From positions 1 to 64,000 of the IMG/VR virus record IMGVR_UViG_3300045988_024527: a DNA stretch of 64,000 nt. One strand, given 5' to 3'. Below, piece by piece: positions 698-48,672 of the stretch. The DNA comes from a virus. Its lineage: Duplodnaviria; Heunggongvirae; Uroviricota; Caudoviricetes. The position numbers and the translations under genes are program-made. Within the stretch, counting starts at the first letter, position 1. Every line of letters starts with the position of its first letter. The notes below the pieces were generated by a model. The model ran no database searches, was not told the origin of the DNA, and worked only from the letters and a program-made list of their open reading frames with translations.

Positions 698-785
698 GGT
701 AGGTAGCGGCTAATGGTAGCCAAACTGTCTTGAAAACAGTTGCCACTGTAGAGATACGGTGAGGGTTCGACTCCTTTACTTACCG
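698..785 (+). tRNA. tRNA-Ser (anticodon UGA), class II long variable arm
   Basis: Acceptor ggtaggt/acttacc, anticodon stem actgt/acagt with loop cttgaaa (TGA 731-733), long variable arm, T-loop ttcgact 766-772. Confidence 0.7.
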
Positions 786-1040
786 CCTAATAAGATTTAA
801 TTCCCGCGCTCGTCTAACAAGCTCGGTTTTTACTCGTGTATTGTCGTACACACTGACAAAGCACCTAGTAGGTGTCACGGAGAAGAGATAATATCAAGCT
901 CTCCAAAGGTTCTAGTCACCGGATTAAACAAGACTATGCAAAGACCTTTCTAGGTCTTTTTAGAGGGCTTCTAAGGTTATTACAGCTTGTTGTGGAACCT
1001 TGTTGCTTAGGTTCTTAGAAGTTCTCTAAAAAGGTTTAAT

Positions 1041-1118
1041 GGGAGATTGACGGTAATTGGTAAACCTATCTCGCTTAGAACGAGATGTTTGAGGGTTCGA
1101 ATCCCTTGTCTCCTACCA
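1041..1118 (+). tRNA. tRNA with anticodon UAG (Leu-type anticodon, short variable arm)
   Basis: Anticodon stem tctcg/cgaga with loop cttagaa (TAG 1076-1078), T-arm gaggg-ttcgaat-ccctt, acceptor gggagat/gtctcct with two G-U pairs, CCA 1116-1118. Confidence 0.5.
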
Positions 1119-1125
1119 AGTTAAT

Positions 1126-1201
1126 GCAGGTGTAGCAAAATGGTTATGCGGCTGACTCTTAATCAGTAAGACGATGGGTTCAATTCCCTCCACCTGTACC
1201 A
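1126..1201 (+). tRNA. tRNA-Lys (anticodon CUU)
   Basis: 76 nt; acceptor gcaggtg/cacctgt, anticodon loop ctcttaa (CTT 1158-1160), T-loop ttcaatt, CCA 1199-1201. Confidence 0.65.
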
Positions 1202-1206
1202 AAAAT

Positions 1207-1282
1207 GGGGTCATAGTTTATATGGTTAAAATTCGAGTTTTGCAAACTTGGGAACTGAGTTCAATTCTCAGTGACTCCACCA
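1207..1282 (+). tRNA. tRNA-Ala (anticodon UGC)
   Basis: 76 nt; acceptor ggggtca/tgactcc with G3-U70, anticodon stem cgagt/acttg with loop tttgcaa (TGC 1240-1242), T-arm ctgag-ttcaatt-ctcag, CCA 1280-1282. Confidence 0.8.
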
Positions 1283-1288
1283 ATTAGT

Positions 1289-1363
1289 GCATCCATAGTT
1301 TAAACGGGAAAATTACAGTCTTCCAAACTGAGGTTGAGGGTTCGATTCCCTCTGGATGCTCCA
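1289..1363 (+). tRNA. tRNA-Gly (anticodon UCC)
   Basis: Acceptor gcatcca/tggatgc, anticodon loop cttccaa (TCC 1322-1324), T-arm gaggg-ttcgatt-ccctc, CCA 1361-1363. Confidence 0.8.
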
Positions 1364-1370
1364 AATTAAT

Positions 1371-1447
1371 GCTGCTTTCGTATAATTGGCTATTACACAT
1401 CCCTTGTAAGGATGGAAATGCAGGTTCGAGTCCTGTGAGCAGCACCA
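1371..1447 (+). tRNA. tRNA-Thr (anticodon UGU)
   Basis: Acceptor gctgctt/gagcagc, anticodon stem catcc/ggatg with loop cttgtaa (TGT 1405-1407), T-loop ttcgagt, CCA 1445-1447. Confidence 0.8.
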
Positions 1448-1542
1448 ATTCAGAGGTCAAGTGAAAGACCGCTGGTGTCAACTGAAGACCGTAACAAATT
1501 CCACGGAGTTGAGTTAGCGGCACAACTTCAGACCTCTTTCAC

Positions 1543-1617
1543 ACTCGCTTAGTTTATATGGTAAAGCCCCATCCTTACAAGTTGGTGAAAAAGGTTCAAG
1601 TCCTTTAGTGAGTACCA
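1543..1617 (+). tRNA. tRNA-Val (anticodon UAC)
   Basis: Acceptor actcgct/agtgagt, anticodon loop cttacaa (TAC 1576-1578), T-arm aaagg-ttcaagt-ccttt, CCA 1615-1617. Confidence 0.7.
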
Positions 1618-1618
1618 T

Positions 1619-1696
1619 GTTCCAGTATCCCAATTGGCAGAGGATGCAAGCTCAAACCTTGTACTAGTGACGGTTCGAATCCGTCTTGGAACACCA
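1619..1696 (+). tRNA. tRNA with anticodon CAA (Leu-type anticodon, short variable arm)
   Basis: Acceptor gttccag/ttggaac, anticodon stem gcaag/cttgt with loop ctcaaac (CAA 1653-1655), T-arm gacgg-ttcgaat-ccgtc, CCA 1694-1696; 78 nt, variable region only about 6 nt. Confidence 0.55.
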
Positions 1697-1712
1697 ATTT
1701 TAGGAGAGCACT

Positions 1713-1820
1713 ATGAGTGATAAGTCCATCGCAAAAAAGTTTAGAGCGTCATATCTAAACAGACGTAAAAACAAAGTTTGTGAAAAACTGTATGGTGTTC
1801 TCGTAGGTAAGCAGGATTAG
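1713..1820 (+). CDS. hypothetical small protein (35 aa), MSDKSIAKKFRASYLNRRKNKVCEKLYGVLVGKQD
   Basis: ATG 1713 preceded by aggagag SD; stop TAG 1818-1820 lies inside the start of tRNA-Arg; below ORF-track size cutoff. Confidence 0.25.
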   Translation: MSDKSIAKKFRASYLNRRKNKVCEKLYGVLVGKQD

Positions 1821-1886
1821 TTCAAATGGATAGAGCAACAGTCTACGAAGCTGTTAATAGGGGTTCGAATCCCTTATCCTGCGCCA
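1811..1886 (+). tRNA. tRNA-Arg (anticodon ACG)
   Basis: 76 nt; perfect acceptor gcaggat/atcctgc, D-stem gttc/gagc, anticodon stem acagt/gctgt with loop ctacgaa (ACG 1845-1847), T-loop ttcgaat, CCA 1884-1886. Confidence 0.85.
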
Positions 1887-1904
1887 GATAAGCAAGAGGA
1901 ATTT

Positions 1905-2147
1905 ATGCAAACATTAATCGTCGTTGCACATGAAAACCCCAATAGTATTGAGTTTGTAAGGGTTCCCACTATAGATACCCACATTTTCTTGAAAGTCGGA
2001 TGGGAATGCGACCCAATAAAAGTAGGGAAATTTCTTGGTCATTACTTTGGTGGAAGACAATTTAAAAGTATCAATTTTGAGACAGTGTTACCAGAAAACT
2101 CAGAAACAGATAATAATACTTACCTCCTTACGAGGATTAGACAATGA
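1905..2147 (+). CDS. hypothetical protein (80 aa) embedded in tRNA array
   Basis: ORF track; abuts the next ORF; no recognisable motif. Confidence 0.35.
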   Translation: MQTLIVVAHENPNSIEFVRVPTIDTHIFLKVGWECDPIKVGKFLGHYFGGRQFKSINFETVLPENSETDNNTYLLTRIRQ

Positions 2148-2701
2148 GATACTTAAAATATGCTTCATGGATTTTCCTAGCTTTACTAGAACCATTTGCA
2201 GCAGCCCTAGCAGTCATCTTAGCACCTTTCGTAGTTCCATTCTACAGTGAGAAGAAAGGACATCTACCTTTTGGATTCAGATGGATGGAGACCTACGACA
2301 ACCCGATTGATGGTGATGAAGGTCACGTTAAAAGATGGGCTAAGATTAGAAAGATTGGTAAGCTGGGTGTCTACATGCAGAGAGTTGGATGGCTCTGGAG
2401 AAACAAAGCTTATAACTTCTCTTACCATGTATTAGGAAGAGATGTAAAAGATGTTACTAAGTGGAAAGGTAATATCAACGTAAGTTCTAACCCTGAAGAT
2501 AATCAGACTGGTTATCTCCTAATGTGGAACAGTAATGCTTGGGGATTATTCGCTTTTATCCCATCAATTAAAGTCTTTGGTAAACAGTTTTACTGGAGAA
2601 TTTATATTGGATGGAAACTAAAAAGTGTTGTCCCAGAAGAAAGAGCATTCTCAAGGGAAAGAGTTATGTTGGCATTCTTTATTCATCCACTGAGAAAGTA
2701 A
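2144..2701 (+). CDS. hypothetical membrane-anchored protein (185 aa)
   Basis: ORF track; hydrophobic N-terminus IFLALLEPFAAALAVILAPFVVPF, Trp-rich body; function not recognised. Confidence 0.5.
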   Translation: MRYLKYASWIFLALLEPFAAALAVILAPFVVPFYSEKKGHLPFGFRWMETYDNPIDGDEGHVKRWAKIRKIGKLGVYMQRVGWLWRNKAYNFSYHVLGRDVKDVTKWKGNINVSSNPEDNQTGYLLMWNSNAWGLFAFIPSIKVFGKQFYWRIYIGWKLKSVVPEERAFSRERVMLAFFIHPLRK

Positions 2702-2709
2702 AGATTTAA

Positions 2710-2785
2710 AGGGGATTAGTTTACAAGGTTAAAACCTCGGTCTTTGAAATCGAAGAAGTTGGTTCAATTCCAACATCCCCCGCCA
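2710..2785 (+). tRNA. tRNA-Gln (anticodon UUG)
   Basis: Anticodon stem tcggt/atcga with loop ctttgaa (TTG 2744-2746), T-arm gttgg-ttcaatt-ccaac, acceptor with A1-C72 mismatch, CCA 2783-2785. Confidence 0.7.
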
Positions 2786-2787
2786 AT

Positions 2788-2866
2788 GCTCCATTACTCC
2801 AATTGGCAGAGAGGCCAGACTTAAAATCTGTGTTATGTATCGGTTCGAATCCGATATGGAGTACCA
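2788..2866 (+). tRNA. tRNA with anticodon UAA (Leu-type anticodon, short variable arm)
   Basis: Acceptor gctccat/atggagt, anticodon loop cttaaaa (TAA 2822-2824), T-arm atcgg-ttcgaat-ccgat, CCA 2864-2866; 79 nt, variable region about 7 nt. Confidence 0.5.
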
Positions 2867-2871
2867 ATTTT

Positions 2872-2947
2872 AGCGGTATAGCATAACTGGCAATGCAACA
2901 GTCTCTGAAGCTGTCCTATTAAGGTTCAAATCCTTATGCCGCTGCCA
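2872..2947 (+). tRNA. tRNA-Gln (anticodon CUG)
   Basis: 76 nt; acceptor agcggta/tgccgct, perfect D-stem gcat/atgc, anticodon stem acagt/gctgt with loop ctctgaa (CTG 2905-2907), T-loop ttcaaat, CCA 2945-2947. Confidence 0.75.
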
Positions 2948-2978
2948 CTTCTAAGGGTTCTTACGAGAGTCCTTAAAT

Positions 2979-3054
2979 GTGGCCTTATCATAAATGGTAA
3001 TGACCCATGCTGTGAACATGGTCTATACGGGTTCAAATCCCGTAGGTCACCCCA
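2979..3054 (+). tRNA. tRNA-His (anticodon GUG)
   Basis: 76 nt; acceptor gtggcct/aggtcac, D-stem tcat/atga, perfect anticodon stem ccatg/catgg with loop ctgtgaa (GTG 3012-3014), T-arm acggg-ttcaaat-cccgt, CCA 3052-3054. Confidence 0.8.
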
Positions 3055-3059
3055 ATTTA

Positions 3060-3136
3060 TAGCCCAAGTAGCTTATATGGTTAAAGCGCGTGTCTGAAAA
3101 ACATGAGAAGAGGGTTCAAATCCCACTGGACTACCA
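3060..3136 (+). tRNA. tRNA-Phe (anticodon GAA), imperfect acceptor stem
   Basis: D-stem gctt/aagc, anticodon stem cgtgt/acatg with loop ctgaaaa (GAA 3096-3098), T-loop ttcaaat 3115-3121; best acceptor pairing tagccca/tggacta has one mismatch and irregular spacing. Confidence 0.45.
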
Positions 3137-3152
3137 ATTTCAAAGGTGCTTA

Positions 3153-3887
3153 ATGAAAGAGATGACAGAACAAGGTAAGGAGATTTTTAATCTCTTAAAA
3201 ACCGGTAAAGGGTTTTCTAACCCACTTATTACTGGTGCAGCAGTTCTCGGTGGAACCGTAGCTGCCTCTACATCACTTGTAAGCTCTATTAGCTCTGTAA
3301 CAGACCCTACAATGAAGGAGAAACTTGTTGCTGCTGGACTTACAACAGTCCTTCTAAACAGTTTTACAACAAGCCTGACAAGCACTACAGCAACCACTAA
3401 GACCTTAACAGATTATGGTCAAAAGTCTATTGATGAGTTTTCATCACGTATGCAGGTAGCAAAGGGATACTCCAATGTTATGGGTGCAGCAGGAGAACAA
3501 GTTGGTTGTACACCATTCAGTGGTATTATGGGTGTTGCTACAGAGTATGGTCAAAAAGCTATTGACATGATTAACAGTACACTAGATAGTGTTAATGGTG
3601 TGTTAAGTGACTTACAAGACGCTATTGACAAGGGTCTTGATACTGTTTCTGATTTAGCTAACCAAGCTGTCAGTAAGATTAATGAAGGTATTTCAAAGAT
3701 TACAGCTTATGCAGATGAAGTTGTGCAGATGATTGAAGAAGAAGCTGCCCTTATTGCAGAGTACCTTAAAACGAATATCAATGGGTTCTTAGCAGGTATC
3801 TTACCAGACTGGTTTGATGATGCCTGTAAAACTGGTGTAATTGACACTATTGCAACACCAGAAATGAAGAGCGCATTACAGAAATAA
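3153..3887 (+). CDS. hypothetical protein (244 aa) embedded in tRNA array
   Basis: ORF-track frame 3090-3887; start moved to ATG 3153 (SD-like aaagg upstream) because 3090-3136 overlaps tRNA-Phe; Ser/Thr-rich N-terminus, no recognised domain. Confidence 0.5.
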   Translation: MKEMTEQGKEIFNLLKTGKGFSNPLITGAAVLGGTVAASTSLVSSISSVTDPTMKEKLVAAGLTTVLLNSFTTSLTSTTATTKTLTDYGQKSIDEFSSRMQVAKGYSNVMGAAGEQVGCTPFSGIMGVATEYGQKAIDMINSTLDSVNGVLSDLQDAIDKGLDTVSDLANQAVSKINEGISKITAYADEVVQMIEEEAALIAEYLKTNINGFLAGILPDWFDDACKTGVIDTIATPEMKSALQK

Positions 3888-3888
3888 T

Positions 3889-3981
3889 GGAAGATTAACC
3901 CTAAAAGGTAAGGGAGCAGTTTGCTAAACTGCCAGTAGCTGAGAAATCGGTGTACCAGTTCAAGTCTGGTATCTTCCTCCA
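3889..3981 (+). tRNA. tRNA-Ser (anticodon GCU), class II long variable arm
   Basis: 93 nt; perfect acceptor ggaagat/atcttcc, perfect anticodon stem gcagt/actgc with loop ttgctaa (GCT 3923-3925), about 21 nt variable arm, T-arm accag-ttcaagt-ctggt, CCA 3979-3981. Confidence 0.85.
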
Positions 3982-3985
3982 ATTT

Positions 3986-4061
3986 GAATCCGTGACAGAA
4001 ATGGCTATGTGCCTGTCTGCAAAACAGGTTTATAATGGTTCAAGTCCCTTCGGATTCTCCA
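3986..4061 (+). tRNA. tRNA-Cys (anticodon GCA)
   Basis: 76 nt; perfect acceptor gaatccg/cggattc, perfect anticodon stem cctgt/acagg with loop ctgcaaa (GCA 4019-4021), T-loop ttcaagt, CCA 4059-4061. Confidence 0.8.
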
Positions 4062-13230: not shown

Positions 13231-14583
13231 ATGTGGAATCCAATTGTTAATGTAGATATTACATTGAACACCGCAGGAACTACAAGAGAAGGTTTTGGTT
13301 TGCCACTATTCTTAGCTTCAACAGATAACTTTGAAGAAAGAGTCCGTGGCTACACTTCCTTAACTGAAGTTGCTGAAGATTTCGATGAGAGGTCTGCTGC
13401 ATATAAGGCTGCTAAACAACTTTGGAGTCAGACTCCTAAAGTAACTCAGCTTTATATTGGTAGACGCACTATGCAGTACACTGTATCAATTCCTGATGCC
13501 GTTACCGAAAGTACAGACTACTCAATTACTGTCGCTGTTGGTGGTGGAATCTCTCAGCCATACCAGTACACAGCAAAAAGCTCAGATACTGCTGAGAAAG
13601 TTTTGAAACAGTTTAAAACACAGATTGAAGCTGACCCAACAATCAAAGATAAGGTTTCTGTGAACGTAACTGGTAGTGATGCTTCTGCCACAATGATTAT
13701 TACCAAAGCTGGTGATAATGACTTTGTGAAAGTAACAACCACAGCAAAGACTGTATATATTGCAAGTACAACTGCTGACACAGCATCGACTGCTCTGGCA
13801 GCTATTGAAGCTTATTCAACTGACTGGTATTTCATTGCAGCAGAAGACAGAACTCAACAGTTTGTCTTAGCAATGGCTTCTGAGATTCAAGCTCGTAAGA
13901 AGATTTTCTTTACAGCTAACTCTGATGTAACAGCCCTACAAGGCACAGAATTAGCTAGTGCAAATGATGTTCCAGCACAGCTTGCTAAGAATAAGTACAC
14001 TCGTACAGTTTGTTTGTGGCATCACACAGCAGCAGAAGACTATCCAGAAATGGCATACATTGCTTATGGTGCTCCATATGATGCAGGTTCGATTGCTTGG
14101 GGTAATGCACAGCTAACTGGTGTAGCTGCTTCTCTACAGCCAGCTAATAAGAGACCTCTGACAAGCATTCAGAAGTCAGCTTTAGATGCACGTCACTGTA
14201 ACTTTATTGACCTTGATGGTGGTGTTCCAGTGGTTCGTAGAGGGATTACTTCTGGTGGGGAATGGATTGATATCATCCGTGGTGTTGACTGGTTAGAATC
14301 AGACCTGAAAACTTCTCTGAGAGACTTGCTAATTAATCAGAAGGGTGGTAAGATTACTTATGATGATACTGGTATTACCCGTATTCGTCAAGTCATTGAA
14401 ACCTCTCTGCAAAGAGCAGTCAACAGAAACTTCCTGTCATCTTACACAGTTAATGTTCCTAAAGCCTCTCAAGTTGCTTTAGCAGACAAGAAAGCACGTA
14501 TCCTGAAAGATGTTACCTTCGCAGGTGTCTTAGCAGGGGCTATCTTGGATGTTGACTTGAAAGGTACAGTGGCTTACGAATAA
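13231..14583 (+). CDS. putative tail sheath protein
   Basis: 450 aa ORF followed by a 148 aa tube-like ORF, chaperone pair and tape measure; size and order typical of contractile tails. Confidence 0.55.
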   Translation: MWNPIVNVDITLNTAGTTREGFGLPLFLASTDNFEERVRGYTSLTEVAEDFDERSAAYKAAKQLWSQTPKVTQLYIGRRTMQYTVSIPDAVTESTDYSITVAVGGGISQPYQYTAKSSDTAEKVLKQFKTQIEADPTIKDKVSVNVTGSDASATMIITKAGDNDFVKVTTTAKTVYIASTTADTASTALAAIEAYSTDWYFIAAEDRTQQFVLAMASEIQARKKIFFTANSDVTALQGTELASANDVPAQLAKNKYTRTVCLWHHTAAEDYPEMAYIAYGAPYDAGSIAWGNAQLTGVAASLQPANKRPLTSIQKSALDARHCNFIDLDGGVPVVRRGITSGGEWIDIIRGVDWLESDLKTSLRDLLINQKGGKITYDDTGITRIRQVIETSLQRAVNRNFLSSYTVNVPKASQVALADKKARILKDVTFAGVLAGAILDVDLKGTVAYE

Positions 14584-14598
14584 TAGAGGTAAATTGGA

Positions 14599-15045
14599 AT
14601 GGCTATGTATCAGCAATATTCCCCTAAAGACGTTGTATGTAGCTGGAACGGCATTGCTATTGAAGGCTTTGCTCCAGACTCATTCTTGCGTCTACAGAGA
14701 ACATCACCACTTGTGACACCAGTTGTTGGGGCAGGTGGTCAGGTTGCTCTGACAAGAAATGCAGACAAGACAGGTACTATTGAGATTGAGTTAATGCAGA
14801 CTTCTCTCTCTAACCAGATGCTTTCTGCAATTCAAGCTAAACAAGACAATATGGAACTTGAAGAAGATATCTCTTCTAACTTCGTAATCTACGACCCATC
14901 AGGCTCTGTTCTGGCAACTGGTATTAACGCTTGGTTGCAGGAGTTACCACAGATTGAACTTGGTCGTGACCAGAACTCTAAAACTTGGATTTTTGGTTGT
15001 GAGAAGTTAGACTACACTTCTACAATTCCAGCGTCAAGTGTTTAA
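14599..15045 (+). CDS. putative tail tube protein
   Basis: 148 aa ORF after sheath, followed by a strong terminator. Confidence 0.5.
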   Translation: MAMYQQYSPKDVVCSWNGIAIEGFAPDSFLRLQRTSPLVTPVVGAGGQVALTRNADKTGTIEIELMQTSLSNQMLSAIQAKQDNMELEEDISSNFVIYDPSGSVLATGINAWLQELPQIELGRDQNSKTWIFGCEKLDYTSTIPASSV

Positions 15046-15057
15046 TAAATCCTATAA

Positions 15058-15089
15058 GGGGGAGACTTTAAAAGGTCTTCCCCTTTTTT
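15058..15089 (+). terminator. rho-independent terminator after tail tube gene
   Basis: 9 bp stem ggggggagac/gtcttcccc (one G-U), loop tttaaaag, tttttt 15084-15089. Confidence 0.65.
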
Positions 15090-15118
15090 GTTTCTTTTAA
15101 AAGTATTAAGGAATCACA

Positions 15119-15517
15119 ATGAAAACAGAATCTAGAGTAATTAATGGTAAGAAAGTAAATATCGTTCTGCTTGGGGCAAGAGATGGTATTAAGATGTCTA
15201 TGAAGTTGGGTAAAATTGTTGTTCCAACCTTTGCACAGATGCTATCAAGTCTGACTGACAAGGGTAAGAAGGAAGCTCCAATGGTTCCATTTAAAGAGCT
15301 TGTTGAAGCTTGTTTTGACAGAATTGAAGAAATTAACCTTGAAGAAATGGCTACCCTGTTATTTCAAGGAGCAACTGTTGATGACTTCCCACTTAATATT
15401 GATACATACTTCCAAGCAAACTATGGTGAATTTATTGATTACTTAGCATTTGCGCTGGAGGCAAACTTCGGAAGTTTTTTCGAAGCAAGCATTTTCAAAA
15501 GCCTAACTTCTCAGTAA
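15119..15517 (+). CDS. tail assembly chaperone (G-like)
   Basis: 132 aa ORF between tube and tape measure; contains slippery heptamer T_TTT_TTC at 15475-15481. Confidence 0.55.
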   Translation: MKTESRVINGKKVNIVLLGARDGIKMSMKLGKIVVPTFAQMLSSLTDKGKKEAPMVPFKELVEACFDRIEEINLEEMATLLFQGATVDDFPLNIDTYFQANYGEFIDYLAFALEANFGSFFEASIFKSLTSQ

Positions 15518-15758
15518 ACATGGGTAATACTCTACAGACACCACTAACTGATGCTGCTGTAGAGGCAACCTATGAAGAAGCAGACGAGATGAAATTTGTG
15601 CTTGCTATTTATGGTATGGAAGGGTGTAAAGAAACACTTGACCAACTCTTTGCTATGACATTCTCTGATTTATTATCATTGAGACAATTTCTTGAGATTC
15701 AGAGGTCGTATAAAGAGGAAATTGCTTACAACGAACTTAGAAGAGCAGGAAAAATGTA

Positions 15759-15759
<1 letters not shown>
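15439..15759 (+). CDS. -1 frame extension of tail assembly chaperone (GT-like frameshift product; listed ORF 15520-15759)
   Basis: The -1 frame is open from 15439 to the stop at 15757-15759, which overlaps the tape measure ATG; a shift at 15475-15481 would fuse the two frames. Confidence 0.45.
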
Positions 15760-23790
<8,031 letters not shown>

Positions 23791-45023: not shown

Positions 45024-46070
45024 ATGGAGAAGTACACATTAACAAAACTTCCCGATTCAGTTACACATGTCTTTATTGACTCTGACAGTATTGCCTATAA
45101 AGGTGCTTGTGTAGTTGAGAAAGCAAAATATAAATACGTCAATAAACTCACAGCAGAAGAATCTGAGCCATTTGATAATGCGAAAGATGCTGCAAGATGG
45201 TTAGCAGACCAGAGAATCCTTGTGGAAGAGCTTGGCCTGACATTTGATGAAGATGAATGGGAAAGACAGACTTGGAAAGAAGCGAAGAGTGAAAAAGAAG
45301 CTATCATGGCTACTCAACAGGTGCTTCAGGAATGGCTTAAGGTTGTTGGTAAAGAGAGAACTTGGGTAGGTTACTTAACAGAGAAAGGTGTGCATAAACA
45401 CAAAGACATTAAAGGTCTTGAGCACCAATATCAAGGTAACCGCAAAGATGCTGTCACACCAACACACTTAGTTGCTTGTCGTGAGTATCTTCTGTCAAGA
45501 CCAGAGTTCAAATTAATTCTTGATGGATTTGAAGCTGACTCTATCGTTATTGCTAAAGCTGAAAAGATGGGAAAAAAGGCTGCCTTAATGAGTATTGATA
45601 AAGACCTTCGCCAAGCTGAAGGGACTTACTGTATTGATATGACCTATGAAAAGTCGCCTTTGATTTTCATTGCTGATAACAATGTTGGTGAAATTTGGGA
45701 TTGTCCAATAAAATCGACACCAAAAGCTAAGAAGACAGTTGGGGTAGGTTTTAAATTTCTTTGTTACCAAGCTGTGGCTGGTGATAATGCGGATAATTAT
45801 TTTGGTTTAAAGGGTGTTGGTAAGGTTACTATAATGAAAGCCCTTGAAGGTAAAACCACCTACAAAGAGTGTCTTGATGCAATTTATGAACTTTATGCTA
45901 AGAAAGAGTCATACACTTATGTCTCGTGGGATGGTCAAACAATTACCAGAACACCTTTAGAGTTAATGCAGCAACACTTTTTCTTAGCTTATCAGGAAAG
46001 AAACAAGAAAGATGATTTCACTTTTGATAAGTATGGATGGACACCAAATGTTAACCCAACAAACTCTTAA
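45024..46070 (+). CDS. 5'-3' exonuclease / flap endonuclease (RNase H-like)
   Basis: Acidic motifs DSDSIAYKG, DGFEADSIV, DKDLRQ and H3TH-like AVAGDNADNYFGLKGVGKVT. Confidence 0.7.
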   Translation: MEKYTLTKLPDSVTHVFIDSDSIAYKGACVVEKAKYKYVNKLTAEESEPFDNAKDAARWLADQRILVEELGLTFDEDEWERQTWKEAKSEKEAIMATQQVLQEWLKVVGKERTWVGYLTEKGVHKHKDIKGLEHQYQGNRKDAVTPTHLVACREYLLSRPEFKLILDGFEADSIVIAKAEKMGKKAALMSIDKDLRQAEGTYCIDMTYEKSPLIFIADNNVGEIWDCPIKSTPKAKKTVGVGFKFLCYQAVAGDNADNYFGLKGVGKVTIMKALEGKTTYKECLDAIYELYAKKESYTYVSWDGQTITRTPLELMQQHFFLAYQERNKKDDFTFDKYGWTPNVNPTNS

Positions 46071-48341: not shown

Positions 48342-48672
48342 AGCAAAAAAGCTATCTTATGATGACATTATCTCAGGTGCTAAATTAGGTGTTGATAGTA
48401 TCGGACAAGATGTTAAGCACGGAGACACAGTTATGTACTGTGATGACCAAAGAGGGAGAAGTGCAATCTTGTTTGGAAGAATTGTTTGCAAGATGCGAGG
48501 CAATTACGTTGTTGCAGACATGGATGTGAATGTTACACAAAAACTTGAAACACTTATGGATGATAATACATCATCATGGTTCTCCCTGAATTGTATGCAC
48601 ACTTCTTCAGTCACAAAAGTAAGTGATAAGTTTTACGATATGTGGCAGAATGAGCAAATTTTCAAGATTTAA
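48334..48672 (+). CDS. hypothetical protein (112 aa)
   Basis: ORF track. Confidence 0.4.
   Translation: MSKAKKLSYDDIISGAKLGVDSIGQDVKHGDTVMYCDDQRGRSAILFGRIVCKMRGNYVVADMDVNVTQKLETLMDDNTSSWFSLNCMHTSSVTKVSDKFYDMWQNEQIFKI

Follow-up and report, generated by a model that had tools for sequence, protein, structure and literature searches.

In phage lambda, the two overlapping open reading frames (ORFs) G and T lie between the tail tube and tape measure genes, and the second of these, which is in the -1 frame and has no start of its own, is expressed as part of a minor fusion product (GT) that sets a fixed ratio of the short to the long protein. Both this ratio (~30:1) and the interactions of the proteins have been shown experimentally (Levin et al. 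1993; Xu, Hendrix and Duda 2004, 2013, 2014; PMC5009743). For phage P2, the shift from E to E+E' is reported to take place at TTTTTTG, without downstream structure (Christie et al. 2002, cited in PMC3091744). In Felix O1-type phages, the frameshift site is already known, as it has been both annotated and published. Joined two-piece CDSs are present in GenBank for Salmonella phage Mushroom (KP143762, same genus as the phage studied here), Moogle (NC_027293) and Michonne (NC_028247, Citrobacter), a chaperone frameshift is stated in genome announcements (PMC4319497, PMC5543628) and a GTTTTT motif close to the 3' terminus of TAC-N genes was described in 2025 as conserved in 231 Andersonviridae phages and also in Vandenendeviridae (PMC12846349).

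We analysed the corresponding locus in a stretch of 64,000 nucleotides of viral DNA, further called the window, which is 97.7% identical to Felix O1 and 98.3% identical to phage phiWec172 (over 14500-16500). On its sequence, the phage of the window is a Felixounavirus, i.e. a Felix O1-like myovirus of a genus placed in the Ounavirinae, Andersonviridae. The gene order from 5' to 3' is sheath, tube, chaperone, -1 ORF, tape measure and Dit-like protein (Table 1), and as in lambda the pair of overlapping ORFs is flanked by the tube and tape measure genes. The frameshift annotated in Felix O1-like phages (Mushroom, Moogle, Michonne, Mijalis) is located in the homologous gene, at an identical heptamer with identical flanks (AGTTTTTTCGA), its -1 ORF likewise ends where the tape measure gene begins, and the fusion predicted from it is the same; the position given in the Michonne note 'ribosomal slippage (47149)' falls within that phage's homologous heptamer. 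Nothing material differs between that annotated site and the window, most records of the genus just lacking the join. Being already annotated and published, the site is an ordinary one, though real and strongly conserved. With P2 the window shares a contractile tail, a T-rich U6N heptamer, the -1 direction and a position just before the tape measure gene. Unlike in P2, the last base of the heptamer is C instead of G and the proteins measure 132 and 213 amino acids instead of 91 and 142; moreover, the order sheath, tube, chaperone sets the window apart from P2. Lambda differs in being a siphovirus that slips on G_GGA_AAG, and its ratio and protein interactions are experimental findings, whereas we infer those of the window by analogy.

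An earlier note on this DNA had read the site as a programmed -1 frameshift in the tail assembly chaperone, and the phase of the heptamer, the gene context, the match to PF21822, the conservation of the site and the absence of a Shine-Dalgarno sequence before the second ORF all support this reading. We consider it very probable that the chaperone gene carries a programmed -1 ribosomal frameshift of the lambda G/GT (P2 E/E+E') type.

Table 1. Features of the chaperone locus, in coordinates of the window, and peptides predicted for the fusion protein
Feature	Position	Strand	Evidence or remark
Tail sheath	13231-14583	+	phrog_205; Pfam DUF3383
Tube-like virion protein	14599-15045	+	phrog_280; Pfam KPP10_Orf10
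Short chaperone ORF (G / TAC-N), 132 aa, standard decoding	15119-15517	+	Phage_TAC_15, phrog_1613
Internal Shine-Dalgarno-like GGAGG, 13 nt 5' of heptamer	15457-15461	+	Candidate dnaX-type stimulator
Slippery heptamer T_TTT_TTC	15475-15481	+	Sequence and phase
-1 extension (T / TAC-C part), 92 codons and stop	15481-15759	+	Predicted fusion
Nucleotide-invariant block CGAAGCAAGCATTTTCAAAAGCC	15482-15504	+	0 frame EASIFKS, -1 frame RSKHFQKP
Nominal ATG of separately annotated 79-aa ORF	15520-15522	+	Shine-Dalgarno pairing, alignment
Tape measure protein (chaperone client)	15759-18002	+	phrog_4036; Pfam TMP_3, 62 bits
Predicted -1-frame peptide spanning or after the shift site, upstream of Met-15520: HFQKPNFSVNMGNTLQ...			
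Predicted tryptic -1-frame peptide of the fusion, encoded upstream of Met-15520: HFQKPNFSVNMGNTLQTPLTDAAVEATYEEADEMK			
Predicted GluC junction peptide of the fusion: ANFGSFFRSKHFQKPNFSVNMGNTLQTPLTDAAVE			

The family of the short ORF was assigned via Pfam and PHROGs, and these profile matches make the assignment secure: it matched Pfam PF21822 (E 1.7e-19, 71.0 bits against a gathering cutoff of 22), with residues 9-124 aligning to positions 1-124 of the 127 in the profile, as well as phrog_1613, tail assembly chaperone (E 2.9e-48). A search of its sequence against PDB sequences gave no match. The ORF is preceded by its own Shine-Dalgarno sequence (AAGGA, -6.1 kcal/mol). A strong intrinsic terminator (15056-15085, + strand; 13-bp stem with 6 GC pairs, followed by a T-run) lies between the tube and chaperone genes and is likewise annotated in the Michonne record; it would leave the chaperone and tape measure genes less strongly transcribed than the sheath and tube genes.

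Counting codons from the ATG at 15119 confirmed that the heptamer is in the zero frame of the chaperone ORF, as claimed before, in the phase X_XXY_YYZ: the bases TTTTTTC are distributed over the codons AGT (15473-75), TTT (15476-78) and TTC (15479-81), encoding Ser-Phe-Phe, and form the only zero-frame X_XXY_YYZ heptamer of the gene. The -1 frame was found to be open from 15439, just after a TGA (15436-38), to a TAA at 15757-59, in agreement with the earlier note, and thereby overlaps the chaperone ORF by 79 nt (15439-15517). Its end at the tape measure start was verified as well, the stop codon sharing one base with the tape measure ATG at 15759-61 (TAATG). Beyond the chaperone stop, the -1 frame stays open for 80 codons and the +1 frame for 3 codons only. 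The 71 long ORFs of the window contain 61 in-phase X_XXY_YYZ heptamers in 17,984 codon positions (0.34% per codon), corresponding to a chance expectation of about 0.09 in the 26-codon overlap. Of these 61, only the heptamer at 15475 leads into a long -1 ORF, of 94 codons compared to at most 34 for the others, and it is the sole in-phase TTTTTTN in the 71 ORFs. The class H_HH.U_UU.Y, to which U_UU.U_UU.C belongs, ranks among those on which -1 shifts are most efficient in E. coli; IS elements make use of U_UU.U_UU.C, and it is under-represented in the genes of E. coli (PMC4066793).

According to the proposed mechanism, the majority of ribosomes would translate the chaperone ORF up to its stop and release the 132-aa chaperone. 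In a minority, the tRNA-Phe on UUU in the P site and the one on UUC in the A site (15476-15481) would slip back one base onto UUU UUU (15475-15480). Both codons are read by tRNA-Phe(GAA), which would re-pair either perfectly or by G-U wobble, and the -1 frame would then be read from CGA (15481) until the stop codon TAA (15757-59). The predicted fusion, join(15119..15481,15481..15759), would count 213 aa, consisting of the N-terminal 121 residues shared with the short form and a C-terminal part of 92 residues; the 79-aa ORF 15520-15759 matches phrog_4963, 'tail assembly chaperone' (E 2.8e-55). By analogy with lambda (PMC5009743), the shared N-terminal part may coat the tape measure protein, and the rare long form may recruit the tube protein through its C-terminal part. 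If the parallel holds further, a fixed short:long ratio would be needed to start tail polymerisation, and neither form would stay in the virion. In the literature we found no experimental proof or direct protein evidence for the fusion in Felix O1-type phages, and the main text of the PhageMaP essentiality paper on the Felixounavirus Bas63 contains nothing on the chaperone. The window also carries 16 phage tRNA genes clustered at 698-4061 (+ strand), one of which (3061-3136) encodes a tRNA-Phe(GAA) that decodes both codons of the slippery heptamer.

To assess conservation, the locus was compared with those of Felix O1, Mushroom, phiSUSP1, Moogle/Michonne, Yersinia phage P778 and Hafnia phage SarahDanielle, and further with those of Erwinia phage phiEa21-4, Alteromonas phage PT11-V22, Pectobacterium phage phiTE and the rV5-like phage FV3, with chaperone protein identities to the window from 100% down to about 28%. 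In a protein-guided codon alignment, the heptamer occupied one and the same column in 9/9 lineages, including those with 27-31% identity. It has the form T_TTT_TTC, or T_TTT_TTT (a T7 run) in the Alteromonas phage, and GTTTTTT is nucleotide-invariant across the compared lineages. The -1 extension continues for 70-89 codons past the chaperone stop in every compared lineage, and in none of them does the +1 frame stay open beyond 11 codons. The -1 ORF ends at the tape measure start, or within a few bases of it, in the Ounavirinae-level lineages as well as in the Yersinia, Hafnia and Alteromonas phages. Moreover, all 29 viral contigs that were found by the chaperone profile, and thus sampled independently of the heptamer, carry it. 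The conservation that the earlier note attributed to the G/GT arrangement accordingly extends, with heptamer and -1 ORF present in all nine lineages, far beyond the genus. The site adds another case, confirmed by conservation, to the near-universal frameshift in tail chaperones. It also shows the retention of a U6Y heptamer from Ounavirinae to Vequintavirinae and an Alteromonas myovirus, a point already made in PMC12846349. In phiTE (L039:1956-3373), the -1 extension ends at 2225, and an annotated terminator and two additional small ORFs separate it from the tape measure gene, which is at 3373, so that the chaperone and tape measure genes are non-adjacent there. A second candidate shift site in the overlap, the tetramer U_UUC at 15493-15496 (ATT TTC), is kept in the Ounavirinae-level lineages; we rejected it as the main site because it is absent in phiTE, FV3 and the Alteromonas phage and because tetramer shift sites are ~10-fold weaker (PMC4066793).

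As the residues Ser/Cys-Phe-Phe are themselves conserved, part of the nucleotide conservation stems from the protein, and the heptamer might in principle be a functionless by-product of this motif. We attribute next to no probability to such a coincidence, since the synonymous choices that create the slippery form (the wobble T and TTT) have a probability of 0.17-0.29 per lineage, given the amino acids and each lineage's own codon usage, and are nevertheless fixed in all nine (joint probability 1.4e-6 if the 9 lineages are independent and ~1e-3 for five independent ones). Phe codons a few positions upstream of the heptamer alternate between TTT and TTC from lineage to lineage. In phiTE and FV3, the Phe pair is preceded by Cys (TGT) instead of Ser (AGT), a replacement that the heptamer outlasts because the wobble T is retained. 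Furthermore, the heptamer always coincides with a long open -1 frame, and TTTTTTC is otherwise avoided in the window.

Constraint on the nucleotide sequence sets in at the heptamer. Among six Ounavirinae-level lineages, third-position identity averages 0.46 over the gene and reaches 0.92 in the alignment segments starting at 15473-15479. From 15473 on, 7/7 columns with an invariant residue have a third-position identity of 1.0, compared to 0.27-0.67 in the preceding columns. The 20-23 nt after the heptamer are invariant in six lineages with chaperone identities of just 41-81%, and in a DNA search the sole stretch still aligning to Erwinia phages was 15464-15504 (92.7%). The -1 peptide R[SRG]K[HL]FQKP, which lies upstream of ATG 15520, is conserved in the six Ounavirinae-level lineages too. 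Together, this synonymous freeze and the conserved -1 peptide form the signature that is expected if a second frame is decoded from the heptamer onward, and the invariance of 15482-15504 may be explained by such dual-frame coding. That the frameshift signal goes beyond the heptamer, with the block (CGAAGCAAGCAUUUUCAAAA, ~20 nt) as a structure-free 3' stimulator operating with a lineage-specific upstream GGAGG, seems to us unlikely; in that case it might act, for example, via mRNA-rRNA or nascent-peptide effects.

The onset of this constraint also bears on the alternative that two separate proteins are made and no fusion, the 79-aa ORF being translated from ATG 15520 by termination-reinitiation. 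In Felixounavirus this ATG follows the chaperone TAA at 2 nt, a geometry that fits coupling, Moogle has a GGAAGG 12 nt before its ATG, and most GenBank records, including RefSeq Felix O1, list two CDSs. Against this stands that the synonymous constraint begins at the heptamer, 45 nt before the ATG, and that the -1 frame is open and its peptide conserved upstream of the ATG. There is also no Shine-Dalgarno sequence at 15520: pairing of the 17 nt before the ATG with the anti-Shine-Dalgarno sequence has an energy of +0.7 kcal/mol, compared to a median of -5.85 over 70 genes of the window, which ranks it among the weakest 1.4% of genes, and pairing is equal or better at 88.5% of random positions. 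Nor is the ATG conserved, as Met-15520 aligns with Leu in Moogle and P778, with Val in the Hafnia phage and with a gap in phiEa21-4. In phiEa21-4, the Alteromonas phage and phiTE, which miss the ATG, the first start codon of the -1 ORF lies 87-114 nt past the chaperone stop (114 in phiEa21-4). Synthesis of two unfused proteins is thus very improbable, and efficient independent initiation at 15520, named in the earlier note as an outcome that would refute the frameshift, is unlikely given the lack of a Shine-Dalgarno sequence and of conservation. Like T of lambda, the second ORF has no initiation signals of its own, with the caveat that in this genus an ATG is present 2 nt after the stop; ATG 15520 probably represents an internal Met of the fusion. 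Some termination-reinitiation may occur at the TAAACATG junction in Felixounavirus, and it cannot be the mechanism of the family.

In E. coli, A_AAA_AAG is the most slippery class of heptamer, and in dnaX it is combined with an upstream Shine-Dalgarno sequence and a downstream hairpin. Like dnaX, the window possesses an internal Shine-Dalgarno-like element upstream of its heptamer (Table 1); unlike in dnaX, a downstream hairpin is lacking, the Shine-Dalgarno element is not conserved in the family and the shift lengthens the product, while that of dnaX shortens it. The GGAGG pairs with the anti-Shine-Dalgarno sequence at -9.3 kcal/mol, stronger than 90% of the ribosome binding sites of the window's genes, and its distance falls inside the 6-17 nt searched in PMC4066793, positions from which such an element is known to stimulate -1 shifts. 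Its presence in just 4/9 lineages (Felix, SUSP1, Moogle and FV3; weakened or absent in P778, the Hafnia phage, phiEa21-4 and phiTE) makes it at most an optional enhancer. A downstream stimulatory structure, for which the earlier note had proposed a check, was found neither in a single fold of 15475-15570 (z = -0.63) nor by RNAalifold of six lineages, which gave a consensus energy of -1.25 kcal/mol, no covariation and no conserved structure. The hairpin 5-9 nt downstream that marks the structure-stimulated type (IS3, IS911, viral pseudoknot) is absent. An 8-bp hairpin at ~15530-15565 was discarded, being located ~50 nt downstream of the heptamer and not conserved. As no conserved downstream structure is present, the efficiency of the shift is probably low, though the P2 site is likewise structure-free.

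From the T6 run alone, the sequence cannot separate ribosomal from transcriptional slippage, in which RNA polymerase would add an extra U on T6 and the resulting U7 mRNA would encode the same 213-aa fusion. The invariant element is indeed a homopolymer run, GTTTTTT, extended to T7 in the Alteromonas phage, and it is preceded by a weak, terminator-like hairpin (15455-15471); a hairpin followed by a T-run reportedly stimulates slippage in some systems, as ascribed to Penno et al. in 2015. In addition, the DNA record of phage CL1 has exactly the +1 T form, which indicates that the run is indel-prone in some process, either biological or sequencing. We nevertheless regard transcriptional slippage as improbable. 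A T6 run is short, and is made less likely as a substrate by this shortness, as bacterial RNA polymerase usually needs about 8-9 or more (PMC5009743); an A/T run of that length, with or without a conserved upstream hairpin, does not occur at this site. The hairpin itself was rejected as a family feature because it is not conserved in folds of the nine lineages (z from -3.0 to +1.8; absent in the Hafnia phage, phiEa21-4 and FV3). Furthermore, the phase of the heptamer fits X_XXY_YYZ perfectly and its class is one that experiments have shown to be efficient in ribosomal slippage (PMC4066793), and in the homologous phage systems that have been tested (lambda and P2) the slippage is ribosomal. Hence we infer ribosomal slippage at the heptamer.

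The CL1 record concerns an Escherichia phage (OK040806.1; L043:801-1442) in which the sequence homologous to 15119-15759 has T7 for T6 exactly at the slippery run, so that both parts are joined in one ORF of 213 codons, annotated as a single 'tape measure chaperone'. It is the only single-frame match among the fusion-protein matches listed, the other full-length matches listed needing two frames. The T7 may reflect either an error in sequencing the homopolymer or a true variant, and we think it doubtful that it is real and viable. If true, CL1 would make the fusion by standard decoding, which would bring the need for a balanced short:long ratio into question. The 'other mechanism' of T4-like chaperones (Vladimirov/Davidson 2022), which as described in PMC10885494 amounts to separate short and long gene copies, was considered as well and is inapplicable here.

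With ribosomal -1 slippage as the preferred reading, the annotation would be corrected by treating the 79-aa 'gene' 15520-15759 as the C-terminal part of the 213-aa joined CDS, and this correction applies likewise to RefSeq Felix O1 as well as to the majority of some 300 related records. Since Felix O1-like phages find wide application for Salmonella and E. coli (typing, biocontrol, therapy), correct models of their structural genes are of some value.

Other slippery sequences occur in the window as well. In-phase A_AAA_AAG heptamers are present on the + strand at 16046-16052 in the tape measure gene and at 45572-45578 and 48345-48351 in two other ORFs. Each is followed by just 5-8 open -1 codons, so that a slip would truncate the protein, and these sites are probably tolerated background. 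TTTTTTC itself occurs 10 times on both strands of the window, compared to 25.6 +/- 5.4 expected from dinucleotide shuffles, and only twice on the + strand; selection against runs that are slippery or prone to indels would fit this ~2.5-fold depletion.
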